37,376 nucleotides of DNA, taken from UHGV virus genome UHGV-0029172, one strand, 5' to 3'. The notes under the pieces are model-generated. The model saw nothing but the letters and a program-made list of their open reading frames with translations, was not told the DNA's origin and made no database searches. Below, one piece after another: positions 1-36,741 of this stretch. How positions within the stretch are numbered: the first letter of the stretch is position 1; each line of letters starts with the position of its first letter. Source of the stretch: a virus. The position numbers and the translations under genes were made by a program.

Positions 1-15
1 TCCTGTTTTCAAAGG

Positions 16-1284
16 TTATTGATTAAATGCGGCGTGTAAGGCATCCACACTACGTGCCGCTCGCAGCGTGCGTCCGGGGTTACTCTGGCTTGCCAACAGC
101 GTTTGTACCTTGCTGACAATATGCGCACCAATAGGAATTGCTGATGTCGCTGCCGGGGAGGGCGCATTGCAGGTGTGGATCGTGCGCGGGGTGGTGACAA
201 ACAGAAAATCGTCAATCAGCTTGCCGTCCGGCGATACCGCCTGCGCCCGCACACCGGCGGGCCAGGGCTGGAGATCGCTTAACGAAAGCCGGGGACAATA
301 CTTTTGCACCAGCCGCAGATAGCCGCTTTTGCACAGCGAGTTTTTCATCTCGCCCAGTCCTGAGCGTAGATGGTTTTGCAGCACCCGGCGAATCCCCGAC
401 GAGCCCAAAATTTCCAGCGTGTCGCTAAACGAGAAGTCGCGCTTGTGGTAGCCTTCGCGTTTAAAAGCCAGCACCGCGTTTGGCCCGACGGTCACGCTGC
501 CATCGATCATTCGGGTGAGATGCACGCCCAAAAATGGCATCGCGGGGTCGGGAATGGGGTAAATCAGGTGGTTAACAATCTGGTTATGCTCCGGCGCAAG
601 GCGGAAATACTCACCACGGAACGGGCAGATGATAAAGCCCGGTTCGAGTCCGAGCATTTTCACCAGCCGGTCAGCCATCAGCCCGGAACAGCTAATCAGC
701 GTCGATGCTTCATATTCGCCGCCCTGGCGGGTACGTATCACCACGCCGTTTTTATGCTCACTGAGGCCGCTGACTTCGGCGTTATAGATAATCTCGCCGC
801 CTCTGGCCTGGAAAATTTTTGCCATCGCCGCCGTTACTTCGCGGTAGCTGACAATGCCGCTGGACGGCACAAAAATACCGCCAAGCCCGGTGATATTCGG
901 TTCGCGCTCGCGCAGTTCATCGGCGTTTAACCACTCGCGCTCGATACCGTTTGCCGCCGTGCGTTCCCACAACGCGCGCATCCGTTCCATTTCGAGTTCA
1001 GAGGTGGCGACCAGCATCTTGCCGCAGTTGTCATAGCGAATGCCGTTTTGATCGCAAAAGGCTTTAGTGGCGCGGTTTCCCGCCAGGCAAAACTGTGCCT
1101 TCAGGCTACCGGGCGTGTAATAAACCCCGGCATGGATCACGCCGCTGTTGTGGCCCGTCTGGTGACAGGCCGGGCCGGACTCTTTTTCCAGCAACGCAAT
1201 GCGGGCGTCCGGATAGACATCAATCAGTTGCATGGCGGTCGACATGCCGATGATGCCGCCGCCAATAATCACAAAATCATACAT
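16..1284 (-). CDS. lhgO: L-2-hydroxyglutarate oxidase/dehydrogenase (FAD-dependent), LhgO/YgaF-like
   Basis: ORF 16..1350; start moved to in-frame ATG (1282-1284) giving MYDFVIIGGGIIG (FAD-binding GxGxxG motif), preceded by AAGGA RBS; 422 aa; directly downstream of csiD as in the E. coli csiD-lhgO-gabDTP operon (recalled). Confidence 0.85.
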   Translation of the reverse strand: MYDFVIIGGGIIGMSTAMQLIDVYPDARIALLEKESGPACHQTGHNSGVIHAGVYYTPGSLKAQFCLAGNRATKAFCDQNGIRYDNCGKMLVATSELEMERMRALWERTAANGIEREWLNADELREREPNITGLGGIFVPSSGIVSYREVTAAMAKIFQARGGEIIYNAEVSGLSEHKNGVVIRTRQGGEYEASTLISCSGLMADRLVKMLGLEPGFIICPFRGEYFRLAPEHNQIVNHLIYPIPDPAMPFLGVHLTRMIDGSVTVGPNAVLAFKREGYHKRDFSFSDTLEILGSSGIRRVLQNHLRSGLGEMKNSLCKSGYLRLVQKYCPRLSLSDLQPWPAGVRAQAVSPDGKLIDDFLFVTTPRTIHTCNAPSPAATSAIPIGAHIVSKVQTLLASQSNPGRTLRAARSVDALHAAFNQ

Positions 1285-1303
1285 CCGCTCAATTCCTTTG
1301 CGC

Positions 1304-2460
<1,157 letters not shown>

Positions 2461-2616
2461 GAAATGAATAACTAAAGCAACAGGTTAGGGGGAGTTAACA
2501 TTAGAGAACAGATTATCTGGTCGATAAAAAACAGTAAATGGCTTCACTGCAAAATGACCGTTAGTAAACTAAACATATTATCTGCCCCGTTTTATCGGGG
2601 CAGATATAACATTAAA

Positions 2617-4869
2617 TTATAAATAGAGATAGTTCGGCGGTTCTCCTGTTTTCCCTAAAAGAAGAGCGCTACGCCCAGGAATATTGATATTTAGAGTTCC
2701 GCCTCTAAGCGTAAATACTTTACCAGGGGGGATAATTTTTCGGGTATTATTAATAATAATGTTAACGCTATTACTCCCCATGTTTTTGTATATTCCAGGT
2801 TGCAATTTGTTAGGCCAGGTACCTTCAACTTCTTCGTTTCCTTTATTTATTATAACTAGTCCATCATGAGGAGAGTGATTAATGTTCACAGAATCCCCAC
2901 GACTAAAGGCCAGAACGTTTTTAGTTGCAGATACACCCTCAAATGCGCTCCATATTCCTGCTTTATCTATATATAATGCGTGGAATTCATTGTAGAGCTG
3001 CTGATAGGTAGAGCAACCTTTATTAAGCTACGCCTCACCGCCGACACGCGTGGACCCATCATAATTTTTAATTTCAGTCGTTGATTTTAATACTTGGCCA
3101 TCCCAGTAAACTAAAGGCCTGCTGAACGGCAGAGCGGCTATATATGCCATTGCTAATTGTTCATCTTGTTGATGGTTAAATAGAAAGTCATTGAAAAGAT
3201 TACCATTGTTAGGAAAATCGTGGTTAATGTTAATCAATATCCGTCTTTCTGATGGGATACTTGAGATTGTGGAACCCGGTTTTGATGCAAGGGTTTGAAG
3301 ATCTCCACCAAATGAAAAGGCTTTTATCGTTTTCATGAGCAATGAAAAATCAATGGCGCTTAAATCATCTCTTTCATAAAGCAGTGATGACATTTGTTGT
3401 TCATCCAACTGACAAGTTACCAGATATTCCATGTAATTCATAACGGCTTTTTTATGATATTTTGGGTTAAATAAGTTAGTATTGTGTAACCGCTCATTAT
3501 AATTTTTAAGCGGTGGGGTTATTGATCTTTCTATTTGTTCATGTTTTGAGTGTTTTGCCGCATCATAACGTAAACCTCGTACGCCATATTTTCGCATTTC
3601 ACGAACGTATTGATTTTGCAACATAATAACCTGGTCACTTTTGGGTGTTGTTTTAGGCATTCCATTTAAACGCTTTTCTTTTAATGCATGGAGGTTTTCC
3701 CATTCATCCTTAGAGATGTTATCTTTACTTGCTTCGAAGTCTTTTGCAGTGAGATGTATATCTTCTGGATGGATTTGTTTACGTTCTTTTGTTACTGGAT
3801 CTTTAATGAATGGAATCAAAACCTGACCTTGCTAATAGCCAGGGATACCACCTTCTATATCTTTACTGATCTTCGCTCGTATATCAGCAGAGGGATAATC
3901 CAGGTCATTTTTACCACTACCCCCAATTCCCATAAAGTTAAAGGTATAATCAGGAATGATATCGATACCAAATTTTTTAGCATCTTTAACCAATGCAATA
4001 AAATCCTGCAAATCTCCCATTGGATTATGGATGGTACAAAGATCTTCGGGTTGATAAGCATGAAACCAGTAACCCTTTTCTTCTTCGGGAGTTTCTGGTC
4101 CGTCGGCGCGGAAAGTTGTCACTGGAGGGATTTGTATATACCCATAATGGCAACGTGCAAATTCAGACATATTTTCTCTGATCTGCTGGTAGGTGGCATT
4201 AAAAGCATGAAGAATCGCTTCGCCAGGTTTTTTGGGGGTGATGATTTCACATTGTGATTTCTGAACAGCAGTAAGAGATTTACGCTCAAGTGTTTGCCGT
4301 AGATGTTCTAGATTGATTAATATTTTAAATGTTTCTTGCTGTCCGGAAGGTGACGTCACGTTAATATTATATACATCGGCTGCCAGCTCATAGTCAGGAA
4401 TGTTAATAGCATATGCAACATATTTATCTTTTGGGGAAGGTTTGTCAGATATAATGTGGGTGAAATGTTCAGCACGACCATACTGATAAACACCGCTGTT
4501 ATCACCTCTTTCAATCATTGTATCTCGTTGATAAACCTATGTTTTTCTTTCTCCTATCCTGTCTGGCGCTGTAATGCTACGCTGTGCTGCTTTATTCAAC
4601 TCTCGGTAAGTTGTATCTGGAGAAAGGGAAATTTTATAATCGTTTTTTAACAGATCATTAATAACTTTTTCTGCGTGAAAAGTTGATATAATTTCTCTGT
4701 CTTTTAATCCTTGAGGGTAAACTCCACAAGAATTAATAATATTTGTTATACAGTTTAGATATTCTAATGTATTTAATTTGGAATTTAGATCCCCGTCAGT
4801 AATGTTCCATGATAACAATGTGGGGTTGTCGATAGGTAAATTTCTGGATCCTGGTTTTATAGAAAACAT
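2617..4869 (-). pseudogene. ygaQ: ygaQ-like gene disrupted by three in-frame amber (TAG) codons (at 3028-3030, 3832-3834, 4537-4539)
   Basis: Four track ORFs (4537..4869, 3832..4518, 3028..3819, 2617..2889) all lie in the same minus-strand frame (coordinates congruent mod 3); no other stop seen between 2890 and 3027; E. coli K-12 ygaQ is a multi-fragment pseudogene at this position next to csiD (recalled). Confidence 0.7.
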
Positions 4870-5428
4870 AATAAAGTTCCTCTAATGGTAGAGTAATATG
4901 ATGTATACGGAAGCATAAAAATGTTTAATTGTTGTGAAAGTAATTGCAAACAGATGTCCTACTTTTATCCAATATTTATATGGAAAAGGATAATGCTTAA
5001 ATCTGTTTTATTAATTATCGATGTGGTCTGGAGAGGCAACTGTCAAAAATCGCTCATACGAAACTAATGATTAGCAGAATAAGATCTATGAAAGAATATA
5101 TTGCTATACGAAGTTTATTTTTATGGAGTGAAAAGTAACAGATATCATAATGATGCGAAAACTCTTCAGCTAATGTAATAAAGTTATATTATTAGATACA
5201 AAATCATTACAAAGTATCATTGAATCGATGATAACTATAGATAGTGCTAATTATTAACATTTGCTTGTTGACTGCGAGTATCGACTTTGCGAATGGAGGC
5301 GGTGTCGGGTTTTATGTCGCGTGTAATCACGACCCAAGGTGAATGGGAACGCATAAAAATCTGTTATTTACATCATATGATCATCATGTTTATTGCGTGG
5401 TTTATAAGTATTGTTATTGCACACTCAA

Positions 5429-5507
5429 GGCCCTTTAGCTCAGTGGTTAGAGCAGGCGACTCATAATCGCTTGGTCGCTGGTTCAAGTCCAGCAGGGGGG
5501 GGCACCA
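5429..5507 (+). tRNA. tRNA-Ile(CAU) (ileX/ileY-type) copy at the attL junction; 5' 65 nt canonical, 3' acceptor strand replaced by prophage-derived AGGGGGGGGCACCA
   Basis: GGCCCTTTAGCTCAGTGGTTAGAGCAGGCGACTCATAATCGCTTGGTCGCTGGTTCAAGTCCAGC read directly; D-, anticodon- (CAT at 5462-5464) and T-arms intact and near-identical to recalled E. coli tRNA-Ile2; 3' end does not pair with 5' GGCCCTT. Confidence 0.7.
5459..5494. repeat. attL core (36-bp direct repeat ACTCATAATCGCTTGGTCGCTGGTTCAAGTCCAGCA)
   Basis: Identical 36-mer at 5459-5494 and 36696-36731; sequence diverges on both sides. Confidence 0.85.
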
Positions 5508-5534
5508 AATTTAAGCAGTAAATACATACAGTTA

Positions 5535-5559
5535 GGCCACTCTCGCGAGTGGCCTTTTT
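5535..5559 (+). terminator. intrinsic terminator (8-bp perfect stem GGCCACTC/GAGTGGCC, 4-nt loop, TTTTT)
   Basis: Read directly: ggccactctcgcgagtggccttttt downstream of the tRNA copy. Confidence 0.6.
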
Positions 5560-5625
5560 GTTACCTCGCTTTCGAGTGGCGATAGAATGGCGGTGGATTT
5601 TTTACCGCCACTTTGCTGAGGGCAT

Positions 5626-5664: not shown

Positions 5665-5883
5665 TCAGAGCCACAATGGCCGCTGACCACCGACAGTCGG
5701 GTGCGGCGGTGCCGGGTCAATGACTCCCGGAGTAACAATAAAGCGCTCTATCGTTTCCATTGTCATAAACGTGCAACTACAGTTGATATTCTGGCACTGG
5801 TGGTAGCGCACTTTCGTATTTTCTGTTAGATAGCGGCTTGTTCTCGCATGTGCGGCATGATGGCACTTCGGACAATGAAACAT
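5665..5883 (-). CDS. B: late gene transcriptional activator, Ogr/B zinc-finger family
   Basis: ORF 5665..5916 begins with TTG; start moved to ATG giving MFHCPKCHHAAHARTSRY...CQNINCSCTF (C4 zinc finger), 72 aa like P2 Ogr/186 B (recalled). Confidence 0.85.
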   Translation of the reverse strand: MFHCPKCHHAAHARTSRYLTENTKVRYHQCQNINCSCTFMTMETIERFIVTPGVIDPAPPHPTVGGQRPLWL

Positions 5884-5950: not shown

Positions 5951-7120
5951 TTATTCATCATCCGATTCCGCGCTGTACTCAACATCAGAGAGTTTAACCT
6001 CAAGCTCTAAGCCCGTCGTGAAGCCGCCACCGTTCAGATTGTGAGTCACCTTACTGATTAACCATGATTGCTCGTCTATGACGCGCTTAAAGCCTGACAC
6101 GCGCACCGGTACCTCAGGGAATAAATCAGCCCTGCCAAGCGCCAGCGTAATTGAAAACTCCGCAACGCCTCGCTGCAGCTTATCCCACTTAGCCTGAGCG
6201 GCGCGCATCGCCTGCGCCTTAGAAGCGTAGACAGTCGTCAGCGCCAGCACGTTATCGGCCTCGCCGGCCATATACTCACCCTCGCGCGCCTCCGGCTCTT
6301 TTTTGGCCTTTGTCTTTTTGCTGACCGGCTTTGCTTTCGGGTGCTCCAGTGCGCGCAGGTGTTTCTCTTTTGGCTTACGTTTCAGCGTTACTTTCTGCTT
6401 TTGCGGTTTCGGGTCTTTGGTGTGCAACCATTTTGCCGTTACGCCGGTATAAGCCCCACGGTCAGCAATGGCAAACTGGTGACGGTCGCCATCGCTGCGG
6501 GTCAGCGTCATTTGCGGGACGGGTTTACCGCTGGCCGTCATCGCACTACCGGCTTTCAGAAACAGGAGTTTCCCCGCTTTCACTGACACCGCTGCCCCAT
6601 TGCGGTCAGCCAGCCGGGTCAGAAATACGGCGTCGGACTCCTGCGACTGGTCGATATGCGGCACCGGTATTTTTTTCAGTGAATCCGCGACACTGGCCGT
6701 CAGTTTATTGCGCTTTGCAATGGTGCTGACCAGCTCACCGAGGGTGGTGTCGTGCCACGATTCTTCACGCCGTGAATTGAGCGTTCCGCGAAAGTCTGCA
6801 CTACGCGCCCGGATGGTCAGGGTATCAGGCGCGCCCCGATGCTCAATCTCATCGACCGTGAAATCGCCCTTATTCAGAAGCGCGGAACCCTGCCACCCAA
6901 GCCACAGCGTGAGCACCGCCCCGCGCAGGGGTAACTCGACTTTGCCGTCAGTGTCGTCGAGCTCAATGTCGAGCTGGTCAGCCTCAAAACCCCGATTGTC
7001 GGTCATGGTAAGAGAAATCAGCCGGTCGCTAAAATTGCTGGTAATGTCCTGGCTGTTCAGTGTCAGCATAAACGCCGGTGCAAGGCTGGTACCGGCATCA
7101 ATAGTCATACCCGTAATCAT
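5951..7120 (-). CDS. D: tail protein D (late control D family)
   Basis: 389-aa ORF, position and size as P2 gpD; ATGA overlap with U stop. Confidence 0.85.
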   Translation of the reverse strand: MITGMTIDAGTSLAPAFMLTLNSQDITSNFSDRLISLTMTDNRGFEADQLDIELDDTDGKVELPLRGAVLTLWLGWQGSALLNKGDFTVDEIEHRGAPDTLTIRARSADFRGTLNSRREESWHDTTLGELVSTIAKRNKLTASVADSLKKIPVPHIDQSQESDAVFLTRLADRNGAAVSVKAGKLLFLKAGSAMTASGKPVPQMTLTRSDGDRHQFAIADRGAYTGVTAKWLHTKDPKPQKQKVTLKRKPKEKHLRALEHPKAKPVSKKTKAKKEPEAREGEYMAGEADNVLALTTVYASKAQAMRAAQAKWDKLQRGVAEFSITLALGRADLFPEVPVRVSGFKRVIDEQSWLISKVTHNLNGGGFTTGLELEVKLSDVEYSAESDDE

Positions 7121-7602
7121 GCTGTCAGCCCTCCGAGCGCACCCTGCAGCTTATCAGTGAGATTACCGGCAGAGCCGAGAAGCTCGCTGGCCTGCTTATT
7201 CAGGTCGCCAAACATTGCCGTCAGTGATTCGTCGACCCGTTTCAGCGAAAGGGTGAAATCAATCTTTCTGGCCGCGCCGTCGCTGAAAAACTCAGCATGC
7301 GTGGTCGACACCTTATCGACGATATACATCCCGAAGATATTGCCGGTTCCCTCAATAAGCGGCCATGCTCTGCCCTCGTCGGCCATCAGCTCAACAGCCA
7401 GCAGGGATATTCGACCGCCGGTAATAGCAGGGTAAAGCGTACCGGCAAGCTGGATCGAGTTCTCCCCCTCGCCGAGAAATTGATATGCAGGAGGTTTACC
7501 GACCCGGTCATTAGACGCCCAGCGATAATCTTTCGAGTGTTGCATCGACTGATAAGGCAGGGTGCGGCGTTCAAACACAAACATTCCAAGCGCAAGCATC
7601 AT
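7117..7602 (-). CDS. U: tail protein U
   Basis: 161-aa ORF between T and D as in P2. Confidence 0.85.
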   Translation of the reverse strand: MMLALGMFVFERRTLPYQSMQHSKDYRWASNDRVGKPPAYQFLGEGENSIQLAGTLYPAITGGRISLLAVELMADEGRAWPLIEGTGNIFGMYIVDKVSTTHAEFFSDGAARKIDFTLSLKRVDESLTAMFGDLNKQASELLGSAGNLTDKLQGALGGLTA

Positions 7603-7614
7603 CGTTTATTCCTC

Positions 7615-10056
7615 TCAGTCATGGCCCATACTGGCACGCTGACGCGCACGCTTTTCGCGCTCAATCTGTTCGAGCGTGTCGCGTAGCTGTCTGTCAAGCT
7701 GATGCCCCGGCGCAACACCTCCCGGCAGAGTGATGTTGTATTCGCTTTTGCTCTGGTCAATGTAAGAGCGCCCCGCCGGTGCGGTAACTGGCTGATAAGC
7801 CTGATAGCCGCCATATGTGTTGGTTGCCGGGATGTAGGAATTACCCTGCGTGGCGGCGTTGGTTTTGGCGGCAGTCTGGTCGAGGCTGTCCGATTCTTTG
7901 TTGATGATGCCGAGTTTTTCGAGAAGCCAGTCGACACCGCTGCGCAGCTTGTTAAAAACATTGAGCGGAGCCATCAAGGCAGAGGCCAGTGCCTGACCAA
8001 AAATAACGCCGACATTTTTGCAGCTATCAAGCGTCTCCTGCGTGGCCTTGACCGGTGCAATCAGGTCTTTAAACCATTGCCAGACGCCGCGCAGCTTCTC
8101 ACCGATGCCGTCAAAAATGGGTGCCAGTGGAGCGAACATTTCCCCGACCGGTGCAAAGGCGCTCATGATGCCCTCAATCACCCCCGAGAAAAATGCGCTG
8201 ATGGGCTCCCAATATTTGCGGATGAGTAGAGCCCCGGCCACAATCGCCGCACCGACGGCCACAATCGGCCAGGTAATCGCACCGAGCGCTGTCACAATGG
8301 CACTACCAGCGACAGTAAATACCGTACCCAACACGCCAGCAGCGGCGATAATGGCGTTAATCCCCATGACAACCGGCCACGCAACGAGACCAATGCCGCC
8401 GATGATACCAATCAGCGCCAGCGCGCCACCGGCGATGATGCCGATAGTTGTCGCCAGCCCTTTGTTTTTCTGGATCCAGCCGTTGAGCTTTAACACATAC
8501 TGCGTGGCGGTTTGGGTGAGTTTGCGCAGCGAGCCCTCTTGCTGGTCAAAAAGGTCGGTACCGACCGCCTCATATGCAGACTGAAACTCTTTAAAATCAC
8601 CGCCGAGGTTATCCTGCATAACCTTAACCAGTTCCTCGGTTTTGCCGTCTGACGCTTTCAGCGCGGCGGTTAGCTGGTCGAGCTTGCCGCTGGCCGCTGC
8701 AGCCATCAGCACATTAGCCGATGAGCTGGCTTCCTCGCCGAATATCGTTTTCATGTATTCGGCTTGCTGCCCCGTACCGAGATTGTTGCGCTTAAAGCTG
8801 GCCTGCATTTCTTTCAGGATGGTAAATATCGGGCGCGTATTGCCTTTGTTGTCTGAGGTTTTGACGCCCAGCTCTTTGAGGGCATCCCATGCCTTGCCGG
8901 TCGGAGCCTGTAGGCGACTTAATACTGCACGGCTCCCGGTACCGGCCATCGAGCCTGTGATTTTTGCATCATGCAGAGCACCCACTATTGCGGCGGTTTC
9001 TTCAATGCTGACACCTGCATTTTTTGCCACCGGCGCGGCATAGGTCATCGCATCACTGAGGCCGTCAAAGTCGGCGGCTGTTTTGTTCATCACCGTAGAC
9101 AGTACATCGCCAATATGCGAAACCTTGTCATTGGAAAGCTGGAACGCAGAGCGCATTCCCATCAGTAACGCGGCGTTTTCCTCCATTGTGCGACGGTTAG
9201 CAAGCGCCATATTCAGAGTGACTGGCGTTGTTGCCTGAATCGCAGCGGCATCACCACCACCTTTTGCGATAATAATCTGCGCACTGGCAGCATCGTCGGC
9301 AGAGGCGGCAGTATTGTCGCCGAGCTGGCGCGCCTGTTTGCGTAGCGCCTGCATTTCTGGCGACTGCTTATCGACTCCGAGCACAGCCTGCAGTTCGGAA
9401 TTTTTCTGCGCAAAGTCATAACCGGGCATCAGTAATTTAACCCCGGCCATCGTTCCCGCTGTCGCGATACCGACCCCGGCAGCACCGGCTGCGGCCATGT
9501 TACCGGCAAGCTCTTTACCTGATTTATATCGCTCTTTCACCCGGCTTAATTTCGCCTGCTGCGCACTGACGCGCGCCAGTGCCTCGCGCTGTCGATTAAG
9601 CTGCGCCGTCGTTTCGCTGATAGAGGTTTTGAGCCGACGCTCATCGGCAGACAGGGTGCGGGTATTAATACCGGCCTGCATCAGCTCGGAGCGCTGGCGC
9701 TGTACCGACGTTCTTAGGCTGTTGTATTTAGTCTGCAGCTCAGAGGCAGCACGCTTTGCCGCTTCGAGTGCCTGCGCCTGCGCGCGGGTCGGACTGGTGG
9801 TGTTTTTAAACTGCACGGCCAGTTCACCGGCCTCGCGTTTCGCTTTCTCAAGCGACTGACTGGTTACGGCCAGTTGCGCGCTTGCCTTACGAAAGCCATC
9901 GATTTTCGATGCCTGACCATTCAGGTCACGCAGCCCCTTTTGTGTGTCGCGAATATCCCCCGACAGGGATTTACTCGCGGTCTGGATAGATTTAAGCGGT
10001 CGGGTTGCCTGGTCTACCGCTTTCAGCAATACCTCAAGCCTCAAGTTATTACTCAT
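7615..10056 (-). CDS. T: tail tape measure protein
   Basis: 813-aa ORF, Ala/Gly-rich with coiled-coil and hydrophobic segments; ATG at 10054-10056 overlapped by E' stop. Confidence 0.9.
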   Translation of the reverse strand: MSNNLRLEVLLKAVDQATRPLKSIQTASKSLSGDIRDTQKGLRDLNGQASKIDGFRKASAQLAVTSQSLEKAKREAGELAVQFKNTTSPTRAQAQALEAAKRAASELQTKYNSLRTSVQRQRSELMQAGINTRTLSADERRLKTSISETTAQLNRQREALARVSAQQAKLSRVKERYKSGKELAGNMAAAGAAGVGIATAGTMAGVKLLMPGYDFAQKNSELQAVLGVDKQSPEMQALRKQARQLGDNTAASADDAASAQIIIAKGGGDAAAIQATTPVTLNMALANRRTMEENAALLMGMRSAFQLSNDKVSHIGDVLSTVMNKTAADFDGLSDAMTYAAPVAKNAGVSIEETAAIVGALHDAKITGSMAGTGSRAVLSRLQAPTGKAWDALKELGVKTSDNKGNTRPIFTILKEMQASFKRNNLGTGQQAEYMKTIFGEEASSSANVLMAAAASGKLDQLTAALKASDGKTEELVKVMQDNLGGDFKEFQSAYEAVGTDLFDQQEGSLRKLTQTATQYVLKLNGWIQKNKGLATTIGIIAGGALALIGIIGGIGLVAWPVVMGINAIIAAAGVLGTVFTVAGSAIVTALGAITWPIVAVGAAIVAGALLIRKYWEPISAFFSGVIEGIMSAFAPVGEMFAPLAPIFDGIGEKLRGVWQWFKDLIAPVKATQETLDSCKNVGVIFGQALASALMAPLNVFNKLRSGVDWLLEKLGIINKESDSLDQTAAKTNAATQGNSYIPATNTYGGYQAYQPVTAPAGRSYIDQSKSEYNITLPGGVAPGHQLDRQLRDTLEQIEREKRARQRASMGHD

Positions 10057-25322: not shown

Positions 25323-25329
25323 ATTGCCA

Positions 25330-25554
25330 TCAGCCTTTAGATTTTTTGGGGTCATCTTTTCGCTGGTAAGTACGCTCTTCCTGAATCTTTCCGTCCTCAG
25401 TATGAATTTTTACTGAGCCAGTCTTAGTAGACATGTAATCCTGCATCTCTTTGATGACTTCAGCCTTAGTCGCTGCTGTCTTGCTTGGCCGTTCATTTCC
25501 TACCTTTTGAAACTTCCACTTATCACCATCTTTTGTAATGTGGTAGTTATCCAT
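25330..25554 (-). CDS. small basic hydrophilic protein of unknown function (possibly DUF2188-like)
   Basis: 74-aa ORF with strong GGAGG RBS 7 nt upstream of ATG; lies between cos and Q, a position with no gene in P2 (recalled); lower G+C than neighbours by eye. Confidence 0.6.
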   Translation of the reverse strand: MDNYHITKDGDKWKFQKVGNERPSKTAATKAEVIKEMQDYMSTKTGSVKIHTEDGKIQEERTYQRKDDPKKSKG

Positions 25555-25780
25555 TAAAGCCTCCAGCTGTTGGTGGGGAACATGACATACCGATGAAGAT
25601 AATAACGAAAGCGCAGCCGTAGAATTGTGCGACTGATCTCACCCTAACGCATCGCTCCATAGACAAGCCATAGCCTCACGATCGCGCCAGACCACCAACG
25701 AGCCAGTAACTATCTCTTTAGCTCCACCACGACGCACTTAGACGGTATTTTTCAATAATCAGCACCAACGCTGGCGCGCA

Positions 25781-25799
25781 ATGCTTTCCCCGCCACGCC
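25781..25799. other. cos site (cohesive end), reverse complement GGCGTGGCGGGGAAAGCAT
   Basis: 19-mer atgctttccccgccacgcc read directly; matches recalled P2/186 cos cohesive-end sequence; located between Q and the A-side variable region as expected. Confidence 0.7.
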
Positions 25800-25971
25800 T
25801 GCCCGCTTTATGGGTCGAAATTAATGCAGTTGCATGACCACCAGGGATCCGCGCCAGCTCTGGTGGCACACTGCCAGAACGAGCAACCATGACGCATGCA
25901 AAACCATGCATCTGTTGCATGCATCGTTAATGAGTCGAGTTATAAGAATTAAATGTTAGAGAAATTTAAAC

Positions 25972-26850
25972 CTAATTATCTATCTCCGAACGAAGCAAAC
26001 TTACGTGTTTAGTATCGACAGGTAACGGCTTCGGAGCATGGTTTAATCCTTGATAAGATACATACGCGCTTGCTATTGATGCGACTGCGCTTGCCACCGC
26101 GACGATTACAGAAAGGATAGTAGCTATGCGCATTGTTCTCTGACCGGATTTGTCATCACTATAGCGCTGTTCATCTTTGTTAAAATGGCTAAGGGTATTC
26201 ATCGCTTTCCCTACAGGTTTGTATCCAGCTTGTGATTCCGAAATATCACCATTTTCCACAAGTGAATCTAGACAAAGACGTAATTCTTTTTTCATTCTTT
26301 CATTATCATCATGGTGAATCCATAGCTTACCAGCCACATCATCCATAATTAAATATTGACTAAAAGGTGCCTCACCTTCTTGCTCGCGATAAATTCTAAC
26401 TATAGAGGCTAAGACCGCCATTGTATCTGTGATTTCTTTTTTCTGTTGACGATACAAATAACTTTCACGACTAAACTTATTATTTTGATAATCTGAATCT
26501 CGCCTAAATCTAAACTCTCGCAGCCACGTCAAATCATTGAGAGACTGAAACTTTAGCTCATGTGCGTGGTAATAATAAATACCTGAGAAAGATTCAGGAA
26601 CTAGTTCATCAGGAACAAGCTCTGAATCTATATTAAATCGACTTTCCTCAGAATCCCATCTCCTTGCGCGAATCACCCCATTAACAAATCTATCAAAAAG
26701 ATACTCACCACCATCACCAGCCTTGATATAAACAGAATACATATCATAATGGATTGCATTTTCATACATTAAACTAATGCGTCCGTTATCTGGAGTTCTT
26801 TTCTTTTCGAACTTTTTTAAATGCTTAATAATACTATTGCCTGCTAACAT
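25972..26850 (-). CDS. tail-anchored membrane protein of unknown function (C-terminal TM helix), cargo gene 2 of variable-region module
   Basis: ORF 25972..26952 (GTG start, no RBS); start placed at ATG 26848-26850 with AGGTGG RBS; C-terminal hydrophobic MRIATILSVIVAVASAVASIASAYVSY; AT-rich by eye. Confidence 0.6.
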   Translation of the reverse strand: MLAGNSIIKHLKKFEKKRTPDNGRISLMYENAIHYDMYSVYIKAGDGGEYLFDRFVNGVIRARRWDSEESRFNIDSELVPDELVPESFSGIYYYHAHELKFQSLNDLTWLREFRFRRDSDYQNNKFSRESYLYRQQKKEITDTMAVLASIVRIYREQEGEAPFSQYLIMDDVAGKLWIHHDDNERMKKELRLCLDSLVENGDISESQAGYKPVGKAMNTLSHFNKDEQRYSDDKSGQRTMRIATILSVIVAVASAVASIASAYVSYQGLNHAPKPLPVDTKHVSLLRSEIDN

Positions 26851-26969
26851 TAGAACCACCTGAATGTATTTAGCATTAAATAAAATCTTGCCTTTACTAG
26901 CGCCTCGCATTGCTCGTTGTTCAACCCTGCCAGCACTGAAAACAAGTTTCACCGCTGGCAGCGTTTATA

Positions 26970-33509: not shown

Positions 33510-33630
33510 ATTGCATGATTCCTTATTTGAAAATTTCTGACAGTGATTGCCAAAGTTTTGCCGACGTTTGCCATCAACTGCCACCAACAATCGAATCCTA
33601 ATGCGATTATTCGCATTGGTCAACATGAGA
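33510..33630. promoter_or_regulatory. lysis-lysogeny switch region between divergent apl and cI
   Basis: About 120-bp gap between divergent starts; in 186 this holds face-to-face pR/pL and operators (established knowledge); hexamers not confidently resolved. Confidence 0.45.
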
Positions 33631-34212
33631 ATGCGATTTATGGACTTTGAAAGCCAAATATCAAACGAGGAAGTTTTAGACAGAATCTGTCAGGTCTACG
33701 GATTTACACAGAAAATCCAGCTCGCTAATCATTTCAATATCGCAGCCAGCACGCTGCAAAACCGCTATACGCGGGGCAACGTCTCCTATGATTTCGCTGC
33801 ATTCTGCGCCCTTGAGACTGGCGTCAATATCCAATGGATCCTGACTGGTAAAGGACCACAAAAATCAGACGAAAACTCAAAATCGTCTTACGAGCTCCAG
33901 TCGTTCACATTAAGTGAAGGCCGACTCACTAAAACTGGAGATTTGAATATCGACCCCGAGCTTTTCGAAAAGCCTTTGAAAAGTGCCATCTGCGTTAAAA
34001 GCGAGAGCAAAAGCTACATCGCTGAGAAAGATGCGCCTTTAGCTGACGGCCTCTGGATTGTTGATGTTGAGGGCGCAATCAGCCTCCGTGAGTTAACGGT
34101 TCTACCCGGTAAAAGGTTGCATGTAGCAGGTGGAAAGGTACCGTTTGAGTGCGGGATTGATGAGATAAAAACGATTGGCCGTGTAGTGGGTGTATACAGC
34201 GAGGTTAATTGA
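33631..34212 (+). CDS. cI: CI-like immunity repressor (186 type)
   Basis: ORF 33547..34212; conserved-looking N-terminus MDFESQISNEEVLDRICQVYGFTQKIQLANHF (HTH); several in-frame ATGs (33601, 33625, 33631, 33640), start uncertain; stop overlaps int ATG. Confidence 0.75.
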   Translation: MRFMDFESQISNEEVLDRICQVYGFTQKIQLANHFNIAASTLQNRYTRGNVSYDFAAFCALETGVNIQWILTGKGPQKSDENSKSSYELQSFTLSEGRLTKTGDLNIDPELFEKPLKSAICVKSESKSYIAEKDAPLADGLWIVDVEGAISLRELTVLPGKRLHVAGGKVPFECGIDEIKTIGRVVGVYSEVN

Positions 34213-35225
34213 TGACTGTCCGTAAAAATCCGGCTGGCGGTTGGATTTGTGAGCTCTACCCAAACGGTGCAAAAGGCAAACGTATCAGAAAGAAATTCGC
34301 TACTAAGGGCGAGGCTCTGGCGTTTGAACAGTACACCGTTCAAAACCCGTGGCAGGAAGAAAAGGAAGACAGGCGCACGTTAAAAGAGCTGGTTGATTCA
34401 TGGTATAGCGCTCATGGCATTACACTGAAAGACGGCTTGAAACGCCAGTTAGCCATGCACCATGCTTTTGAGTGTATGGGCGAACCACTCGCACGCGATT
34501 TCGATGCGCAGATGTTTTCCCGTTACCGAGAAAAACGGTTAAAAGGTGAGTATGCCCGTTCAAACAGAGTGAAAGAGGTATCACCTCGCACGCTTAATCT
34601 TGAACTGGCCTACTTCCGGGCAGTGTTCAATGAGCTAAACCGCCTCGGAGAATGGAAGGGCGAAAACCCACTGAAAAACATGCGCCCATTCCGCACAGAA
34701 GAAATAGAAATGGCCTGGCTAACTCACGACCAGATTTCGCAACTGCTCGGAGAGTGTAAACGGCATGACCACCCTGATTTAGAAACTGTGGTCAGAATCT
34801 GTCTCGCTACTGGCGCCCGGTGGTCTGAGGCTGAGAGTCTGAAAAAAAGCCAGCTTGCGAAATACAAAATCACCTACACCAACACAAAAGGTAAAAAAAA
34901 CCGTACTGTTCCCATCAGCAAAGAGCTCTACGAGTCACTACCTGATGATAAAAAAGGTCGATTGTTTAGTGATTGTTATGGCGCATTTCGGTCTGCACTG
35001 GAAAGAACAGGCATCGAACTACCGGCAGGACAACTTACCCACGTTTTGCGCCACACCTTTGCCAGTCACTTTATGATGAATGGTGGCAATATTTTAGTCT
35101 TGCAACGCGTACTCGGCCATACCGACATCAAAATGACGATGCGATATGCGCATTTTGCTCCTGACCATCTTGAAGATGCAGTAAGACTTAATCCATTGAA
35201 CAAGACCTCTGCGGTAATGGAGTAG
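34212..35225 (+). CDS. int: tyrosine integrase (P2/186 family)
   Basis: 337 aa from ATG at 34212; C-terminal catalytic region with HVLRHTFASHF...LGHTDIKMTMRYAHF (R-H-R-Y signature). Confidence 0.9.
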   Translation: MTVRKNPAGGWICELYPNGAKGKRIRKKFATKGEALAFEQYTVQNPWQEEKEDRRTLKELVDSWYSAHGITLKDGLKRQLAMHHAFECMGEPLARDFDAQMFSRYREKRLKGEYARSNRVKEVSPRTLNLELAYFRAVFNELNRLGEWKGENPLKNMRPFRTEEIEMAWLTHDQISQLLGECKRHDHPDLETVVRICLATGARWSEAESLKKSQLAKYKITYTNTKGKKNRTVPISKELYESLPDDKKGRLFSDCYGAFRSALERTGIELPAGQLTHVLRHTFASHFMMNGGNILVLQRVLGHTDIKMTMRYAHFAPDHLEDAVRLNPLNKTSAVME

Positions 35226-35321: not shown

Positions 35322-35645
35322 TCAAACCTCATTGTATGCACCACATCCATTACAACGAATGACAATGTTATGAATATTAACTTTTGGTACCCCAATAACA
35401 AGTTGAGATTTACACCCCCCACATAGCAACGCTAATCCGACCTCATAACCTGTTATAGCAACGGTGCCCTCTCCTTGATAAATAAAAACAGTCCTTGTAT
35501 CCGGGTCCGGCTCAGGAATAACCTCTAGAGTTATCGTCTCCTTAATCTCCGGAACTTCAGGTCTCTTAATTTTTGGTTCATGGCACTCTTTGAAAAGTAA
35601 GCCAGACTCACAGGGGCAAAGTTCATTTGGATCAATCTTAGCCAT
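35322..35645 (-). CDS. small zinc-binding protein: N-terminal SEC-C-like motif (CPCESGLLFKECH) plus C-terminal CxxC...CxxC zinc ribbon
   Basis: 107-aa ORF, ATG 2 nt after the upstream gene stop (operon); cysteine motifs read directly; AT-rich. Confidence 0.6.
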   Translation of the reverse strand: MAKIDPNELCPCESGLLFKECHEPKIKRPEVPEIKETITLEVIPEPDPDTRTVFIYQGEGTVAITGYEVGLALLCGGCKSQLVIGVPKVNIHNIVIRCNGCGAYNEV

Positions 35646-35647
35646 AT

Positions 35648-36493
35648 TTACTCTCTCACAATGGACAATGGCAAATTTGGATCAATATACCGCCCGATAT
35701 CAGGAACATTCAATTTCATTCGAGTAAGCATAATTAGTAGATAAGTAAAAAAACGGCCAAAAGATTGGTCTTCCATACCCTCTTTAACTATACGTAAAAC
35801 AATCTCATCATTTTCCTCACTATTTACCTGTCGCTTATGCGCCGTTAAAACCAAACTAACAAACTCATCTGTATCTAGGAGTAAATCTTTTTCCCCTTTT
35901 GTTAGATTAACTTTTTCATAACGAAGCACACCTTTGCCAAGAACACATATTAGATTACAAAAATAATTCACATCATGTACAGCCTTGCTGTGCGCCATCC
36001 AATTTTCTTTTAGAGAATCCAGAGAATTACCAGAAATATTAAATCCAAAAACAATACCAAATGGCCTAGATGCCCTATGAACTGTTGCGTATTCTCTAGT
36101 AGCAATCACCCCTAAATCTCTCGGCGCTAGTTTTTTGAATGAGGTTATTTTATTGGCTGCATCATCAAACTCACTTTTTGATAGAGTTGATTTAACTTCG
36201 ATAATACCATATACCCCTTCAACAGGAAGGATTGATGTTTTCCCCGCATAAAGTACTGGGCAATTAACGGCATCATAAATTATGATATCAATAGCATGGG
36301 AGCGTAAACCTTCTTTTGTAATTACCTCTCCTTTGGTCACGCCATATCTTTTTGGCAAATGAGTTTTGAGAAAATCCATTAAAAACTCCTCTCGATTCTC
36401 ACCTTTATCGCCACTATGATGTATAAAACCGGATTCTTTGAATCGAGCCAACATTGTAGCTTCTATTGAATTAAATAATTGATTTAAATCCAT
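35648..36493 (-). CDS. putative PD-(D/E)xK nuclease-like protein, unknown family
   Basis: 281-aa ORF with GGAGG RBS; candidate nuclease core HAIDIIIYD...(about 25 aa)...GIIEVK (D...ExK spacing typical of restriction-endonuclease-like fold); assignment from motif only. Confidence 0.5.
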   Translation of the reverse strand: MDLNQLFNSIEATMLARFKESGFIHHSGDKGENREEFLMDFLKTHLPKRYGVTKGEVITKEGLRSHAIDIIIYDAVNCPVLYAGKTSILPVEGVYGIIEVKSTLSKSEFDDAANKITSFKKLAPRDLGVIATREYATVHRASRPFGIVFGFNISGNSLDSLKENWMAHSKAVHDVNYFCNLICVLGKGVLRYEKVNLTKGEKDLLLDTDEFVSLVLTAHKRQVNSEENDEIVLRIVKEGMEDQSFGRFFTYLLIMLTRMKLNVPDIGRYIDPNLPLSIVRE

Positions 36494-36695: not shown

Positions 36696-36741
36696 ACTCA
36701 TAATCGCTTGGTCGCTGGTTCAAGTCCAGCAAGGGCCACCA
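36696..36741 (+). repeat. attR: 36-bp core repeat plus native tRNA 3' end (T-arm, acceptor AAGGGCC, discriminator A, CCA)
   Basis: ACTCATAATCGCTTGGTCGCTGGTTCAAGTCCAGCAAGGGCCACCA; acceptor AAGGGCC is perfectly complementary to the 5' GGCCCTT at 5429-5435. Confidence 0.85.

Follow-up and report, generated by a model that had tools for sequence, protein, structure and literature searches.

A 186-type prophage in Escherichia coli ileY whose attachment site probably supplies a defective tRNA acceptor strand

Phages that integrate into tRNA genes normally carry a 3′ end that restores the interrupted gene, and the question raised by the 37,376-nt stretch of DNA analysed here (the window; UHGV virus genome UHGV-0029172) is whether its prophage did so. 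The tRNA at the junction is a copy of ileY (tRNA-Ile2, anticodon CAU; 5429–5507, plus strand) with a 5′ part of host origin, a 3′ part of phage origin, and a defective acceptor stem. It reads GGCCCTT-TA-GCTC-AGTGGTTA-GAGC-A-GGCGA-CTCATAA-TCGCT-TGGTC-GCTGG-TTCAAGT-CCAGC, followed by A-GGGGGGGG-C-A-CCA. The canonical 5′ strand GGCCCTT noted in a preliminary description is seen at 5429–5435, the anticodon loop CTCATAA contains CAT at 5462–5464, and the 3′ strand of the T-arm, CCAGC, occupies 5489–5493. These are followed by A at 5494, eight G at 5495–5502, C at 5503, A at 5504, and CCA at 5505–5507. Positions 1 to 66 match native ileY, and the CAU anticodon as well as the D, anticodon, and T arms are intact. 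The aberrant 3′ acceptor strand A-G8-C (5494–5503, plus strand; A-GGGGCC in canonical phage 186) comprises 10 nt versus 7 nt in the native gene. The preliminary description had called this copy three nucleotides too long and mismatched to its 5′ strand, and both statements hold: five acceptor pairs are in register, G1 and G2 have no in-register partner, and a seven-pair acceptor stem with A73-CCA in register is not found. The run at 5495–5502 is the sole G8 of the window; since 27 of 100 shuffles of the window contained at least one G8, its position rather than its existence is of interest. PGAP annotates the same locus in relatives as tRNA-Ile.

The window represents E. coli ileY occupied by an intact-looking 186-type prophage at the known 186 attB. 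Its left flank (1–5428) was 100% identical to E. coli G5, with lhgO, glaH, and an alpha-amylase-like pseudogene preceding tRNA-Ile. The full-length 186-like (Eganvirus-type) prophage (5508–36695) was collinear with phage 186 except for mosaic replacements: blocks of 75 to 93% identity spanned the entire 186 genome in order, six mosaic segments had no DNA match to 186, and the module order late, lysis, tail, B, att, int-cI, early, replication was that of 186. The phage gene nearest to the tRNA-side junction is B, encoding an Ogr/Delta-type late activator (5665–5883, minus strand; by the 186 annotation). A 186-type tyrosine integrase (34212–35225, plus strand; Int_N 7e-34, Phage_integrase 3e-25) is preceded by the cI repressor gene (33547–34212; Phage_CI_repr and CI_C domains). 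The window B protein has a unique E25V exchange (position 5810), absent in all sister prophages and in 186, which accounts for an exact-protein look-up having returned no record for it. A single residue separates the B variant of the lineage from the B protein of 186.

An exact direct repeat of 36 nt was found at 5459–5494 and 36696–36731. The copy at 5459–5494 (plus strand) is the core common to the far junction and to attP and attB of phage 186, as judged from the repeat, the annotation, and the alignment; the 186 record (U32222.1) annotates the same 36 nt as shared with the ileY 3′ end, with CTCATAA as crossover, and the predicted crossover in the window accordingly falls at 5460–5466. Insertion would have proceeded by Int-mediated recombination within this core, and because the predicted crossover is the anticodon loop, all sequence of the junction tRNA 3′ of this loop should be phage-derived. 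At the far junction, the displaced native 3′ half of ileY (36696–36741, plus strand), consisting of core and AAGGGCC-A-CCA and then followed by host flank, was identical to the empty site of G5. The native strand reported for this end by the preliminary description is indeed there, with AAGGGCC at 36731–36737, A at 36738, and CCA at 36739–36741. The non-lysogenic G5 provided the comparison with an empty attB: its ileY equals the 5′ half in the window joined to the far-junction 3′ half and flank.

The phage side of the window was 91 to 95% identical to phage 186. Directly 3′ of the tRNA it supplies a hairpin terminator (5534–5555, plus strand), which in 186 is predicted to terminate the lysogenic operon. 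Rfam matches at 5503–5565 (Phe leader, Trp leader, STnc100) scored far below the gathering scores, reflect this hairpin only, and were discarded. Three predicted Int arm-type sites follow in the junction-side phage arm (5574–5613; 186 annotation), all exact matches to the motif YAYCGCCAYTY (0.32 expected by chance), and the IHF footprint annotated in 186 falls in the same arm. Owing to the G-run, the distance between core and arm-type sites is 3 bp longer in the window.

In E. coli MG1655, ileY and ileX both serve as 186 integration sites, and the long common core keeps the tRNA gene intact after insertion (PMC3448106). The attP of phage 186 reads CCAGC-A-GGGGCC-ACCA; AGGGGCC is fully complementary to GGCCCCT, the 5′ strand of ileX, and its pairing with GGCCCTT of ileY involves a single U-G wobble. 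GGGGCC was also present in five ileY lysogens among complete E. coli genomes, in ten ileX prophages sharing the gpU of the window, and in at least 120 copies in a scan of IMG/VR. The expectation that an integrating phage restores the tRNA 3′ end is thus valid for the family, whose usual GGGGCC does regenerate the gene. The window element shows every structural feature tested for 186-type P2-like phages except this one, which is a usual property of the family and no taxonomic criterion. A T-arm variant (GTTGG...CCAAC) with an altered T-loop, likewise phage-supplied, was seen in four records (L002 from EC-1639, L017, L020, and L021) as a compensatory double change; such changes in the T stem indicate that phage-borne tRNA halves are normally kept foldable, under structural selection.

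A scan of three public collections for at least five G at the acceptor position revealed G5CC at an Enterobacter hormaechei att site and in one IMG/VR contig, and G5C at an empty ileY from JGI; G8C occurred in no other record. Within IMG/VR, this single G5CC copy was accompanied by no case of five or more G followed by a single C. A Ferruginibacter tRNA match was unrelated and due to chance. The two G5CC alleles, with one extra G, belong to 186-type att sites of E. hormaechei B56 (L009; CP170191, 3960–4013) and of IMG/VR contig 3300013025_000049 (L010); in the former, sequence of the phage type borders the site to either side, as in an attP but within a chromosome, and the loop is CTAATAA.

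The effect of the aberrant strand on the tRNA fold was evaluated with three programs. ARAGORN found no canonical 76-nt gene at the junction and called a shifted gene of 72 nt at 5430–5501; with synthetic constructs it returned the canonical 76 nt for AAGGGCC and AGGGGCC, but with G5C to G8C the called gene was either shifted or longer. The Rfam tRNA model gave a local match restricted to model positions 3–68 (55.1 bits), in which the two terminal acceptor pairs were dropped, as compared with full-length values of 73.8 bits for native ileY, 73.1 for an ileX lysogen, and 71.7 for SMS-3-5; the score of the window copy remained above the gathering threshold. In answer to a check suggested by the preliminary description, neither tool scored the junction copy as a normal tRNA. 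RNAfold yielded −30.2 kcal/mol for the window versus −34.1 kcal/mol for the native copy, and the z-score changed from −4.2 (native) to −1.8 (window). Six acceptor pairs formed in the window copy only by a slide of register, with four bulged nucleotides then separating the T stem from the acceptor stem.

A coaxial acceptor/T helix of 12 pairs that keeps A73-CCA in register is needed by RNase P, TilS, IleRS, and the enzymes that trim the 3′ end; TilS and IleRS recognize the discriminator A73 together with the acceptor pairs C4-G69 and C5-G68. In the G8C allele the two terminal acceptor pairs would remain unformed and A73-CCA would be displaced by 3 nt. Given these demands of processing and charging, the G8C product is predicted to be nonfunctional: RNase P and the 3′-processing enzymes should not act on it normally, TilS should not introduce lysidine, and IleRS should not charge it, and ileY would effectively be a pseudogene in such a lysogen. 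Some activity might persist in a G5C allele, whose length is correct and whose only mismatch is G2-G71.

Related integrations were sampled as contigs encoding a D protein identical to that of the window, with five distinct places listed for 14 such contigs; repeating the look-up with a short flank added no further places. One was an ENA metagenome scaffold with G8C (L011; sample SAMEA4766294, assembly ERZ28613895, scaffold_301), which is an exact substring of the window and hence its source or a duplicate. Three near-clonal NCBI isolate assemblies (L012, L013, and L015), GCA_012847075.2 among them, carried G5C, and a further NCBI isolate assembly (L014; GCA_004767495.1) carried G6C. C71 was missing in all five assemblies, none of which read GGGGCC. 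All lineage alleles with five or more G before a single C come from draft or metagenome assemblies, G8 and G6 from one each, and none of the complete genomes contained this phage lineage (best match 94.7%). The phages of the lineage were at least 99.8% identical, and their three host backgrounds differed by 1.5 to 2%. Compared with the window, L012 had 55 differences in approximately 2.8 kb of host flank and 8 in 4.6 kb of phage, and L014 had 37 in approximately 2.5 kb and 5 in 4.6 kb, respectively; the switch from divergent to near-identical sequence occurred at the att core. The same phage was recovered in L031, a sixth assembly, at 2 differences in 6.5 kb; the contig includes a displaced copy with GGGGCC together with the downstream flank of ileX, which places the lineage at ileX as well. 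In this assembly (ENA ERZ27237764 k111_9577, 6490–9014), the ileX prophage is immediately followed by a segment of a CP4-type island (DUF4942, CbtA/CbeA, DUF987, RadC, antirestriction).

Since nearly the same phage occurs in at least three host backgrounds and at two sites, and every visible tRNA-side junction (all at ileY) is defective, we infer from this phylogenetic pattern that the C71-to-G change is carried on the attP of this lineage and delivered at each integration. In a first step, C71 to G would have converted GGGGCC to GGGGGC and created a run of five G in attP; in a second step, replication slippage would have extended this run to G6 and G8, and the observed length series of five, six, and eight G is readily accounted for by such slippage. 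We consider it probable that the whole account applies, in which a 186-type lineage with a mutated attP strand and a slipping G tract leaves a dead ileY copy that is tolerated by virtue of ileX. The preliminary description had left the choice between inactivation of the tRNA by the prophage and an assembly artefact in the G8 run. The former is supported by the 186-type prophage at its known attB, the phage-supplied 3′ half, the GGGGCC norm of the family, and the lineage with G5C, G6C, and G8C; the latter, as a pure artefact, is very unlikely.

The best of the competing explanations, although unlikely, is that the defect is real and the number eight is not, the true allele being G5C, G6C, or a mixture of tract lengths distorted by assembly or consensus error. 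The window is identical to the short-read ENA metagenome scaffold, which is the sole source of eight G, and the sister isolates have G5C and G6C. Set against this, a series of 5, 6, and 8 fits slippage on an unselected tract, and outside the tract all differences between the phage region of the scaffold and those of its sisters are single-base substitutions, none affecting length. Over-calling a run of five or six G by two to three bases is also no typical error of a short-read consensus.

Somewhat less likely still is an origin of the defect in the chromosome after integration, with subsequent spread by vertical descent and homologous recombination, or with parallel occurrence. C71 to G did arise independently at an unoccupied ileY in E. 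coli AF14 (see below), so this position can mutate in situ. The far-side host flanks of L029 and L030 showed 0 to 2 differences in 563 nt to the window (2 in L030), and with a downstream flank this similar, import of prophage and flank as a larger segment by homologous recombination may have occurred in these strains. Host-side decay is seen in the L012-type lysogens as well, at D-stem position 5450. However, C71 to G is common to all five assemblies in three host backgrounds, the boundary of divergence lies exactly at the att core and at no arbitrary point, and the lineage is demonstrably mobile, being present also at ileX. Moreover, with the crossover in the anticodon loop, a mutation in the phage-derived segment would leave on attP at the next excision anyway.

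A more far-reaching version of the attP-borne defect appears highly unlikely. It holds that a 186-type lineage circulates with a tRNA-disabling attP, that each integration knocks out ileY or ileX, and that the hypermutable G tract alters the spacing of core and arm sites and thereby excision, so that AUA decoding falls and the prophage is progressively locked in place. If this were true, reduced AUA decoding would affect incoming phages as well as acquired genes rich in AT, and the tract, by adding 1 to 3 bp between the core and the IHF and arm-type sites, could tune or block excision. Apart from this version, altered helical phasing of core and arm sites is known to lower recombination in lambda-type systems. 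As 1 to 3 extra bp shift this phasing, the expanded G alleles might, speculatively and by analogy, excise poorly.

That the junction copy still gives a working tRNA, or that the G tract acts as a phase-variable switch of ileY, is scarcely credible. The tract does vary among close relatives (5, 6, and 8), as a phase-variable tract would, G5C has the right length with one G2-G71 mismatch, the rest of the window tRNA is unmutated, and its Rfam score exceeds the gathering threshold. G8C nevertheless shifts A73-CCA by 3 nt, and C71 is restored at none of the observed lengths, so that no state offers a full acceptor stem; the nearest to a functional ON length is G5C with its mismatch. In the L012-type alleles, moreover, the anticodon has changed from CAT to AAT and one D-stem pair is gone, marks of a pseudogene rather than of a switch that is being maintained. 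A complete artefact, in which the true sequence is AGGGGCC and the tRNA is regenerated normally, has in its favor a homopolymer in a metagenome assembly and is very unlikely, the least credible reading of all, because five independent assemblies with G5C, G6C, or G8C (three of them near-clonal with G5C) lack C71, none has GGGGCC, and GGGGCC could be turned into G8C only by combining an insertion with a substitution.

In the preferred account, an attP-borne defect with a dead ileY copy, the loss of this gene is probably tolerated. Both ileX and ileY have been treated as AUA decoders (PMC2408971), and complete E. coli genomes, for the species at large, have a median of two matching tRNA-Ile2 places. 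As ileX encodes the same AUA-decoding tRNA, it probably compensates for the loss of ileY. The acceptor strand lies outside the recombination core, and therefore nothing else selects for it. In L012, L013, and L015, the junction tRNA carries a G-to-T exchange in the D-stem (5450) and the anticodon change CAT to AAT, position 5462 being within the predicted crossover region; these additional changes are consistent with continued decay of a pseudogene.

An unoccupied ileY with C4 to A and C71 to G (thus G5C) was found in E. coli AF14 (L027; NZ_OZ546925, 332–407) and in a JGI contig (L026; OIEU01004924, approximately 1531–1610). Their background is phylogroup-F-like, where the normal allele, as in SMS-3-5, is AGGGGCC, and PGAP annotates a truncated tRNA of only 71 nt in AF14. 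The AF14-type allele is an independent, prophage-free case of decay. Together with the L012-type changes, it gives signs of relaxed selection on ileY. It resembles the junction copy in the gene affected, the C71-to-G exchange, and the damaged acceptor stem, and differs by the absence of a prophage and of tract expansion and by the additional C4 to A.

Among known systems, coliphage 186 (Eganvirus ev186) at ileY or ileX is the closest: att core, Int type, arm-type sites, gene order, and integration site are the same, and it likewise supplies a tRNA 3′ half followed by a phage terminator. It differs in that it supplies AGGGGCC and regenerates the tRNA, whereas the window lineage supplies A-G5-8-C and fails to do so, and in the cargo between int and att. 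A similar outcome was described for the Mycobacterium abscessus prophage prophiT36-2a at tRNA-Thr, where the junction tRNA has acceptor-stem mismatches and was considered "likely impaired" by the authors (PMC9934374). That case involves two substitutions in tandem prophages, with the tRNA-Thr of the partner prophage as proposed back-up; the window combines a substitution with expansion of a homopolymer, with chromosomal ileX as its presumed back-up. The arrangement also follows the Islander rule, by which the two parts of a split tDNA, a regenerated copy and, at the opposite end, a displaced fragment, mark an element precisely (PMC4383910); according to this rule the element sequences restore the gene, but in the window restoration fails at the acceptor stem. 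A limited literature search gave no account of such a defect for 186-type phages at ileY.

The case is a minor, lineage-specific event of ordinary pseudogene decay that involves no new mechanism. It provides a natural exception to the rule that tRNA-integrating phages regenerate their target, with tolerance explained by a redundant, two-gene tRNA. The tRNA counts of annotated lysogens may overstate the functional gene dosage of this rare AUA decoder, and software that maps islands from a displaced fragment and a regenerated tRNA should accept that the regenerated copy may be damaged. Should attP indeed carry the defect, a strain lacking a good ileY would pay a cost for integration at ileX, which would constrain the host range.

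Several further features of the window stand out. Between int and the far att site (35322–36493, minus strand), it carries two cargo ORFs where 186 has orf69. One encodes a 281-aa protein of the DUF6602/NucC-like PD-(D/E)xK nuclease type (Pfam 4e-30; PADLOC PD_DExK 1.6e-40, NucC 7e-25), the other a SEC-C-motif protein of 107 aa. Conservation of both extends from the sister prophages to two IMG/VR contigs, and neither had a match in the phage record collection; they may constitute a defence module at the hotspot that P2-like phages have between int and att. A second non-186 segment near the cos end (25323–26896) harbors an ORF of 326 aa (25972–26952, minus strand) without a significant Pfam or PADLOC family, and searches of the remaining non-186 ORFs against Pfam and PADLOC gave nothing significant. 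Upstream of ileY, the gene with an alpha-amylase C-domain (3028–4869, minus strand) is split into three ORFs (263, 228, and 110 aa); most relatives have it annotated as a pseudogene with an internal stop, and in EC-1639 it is intact.
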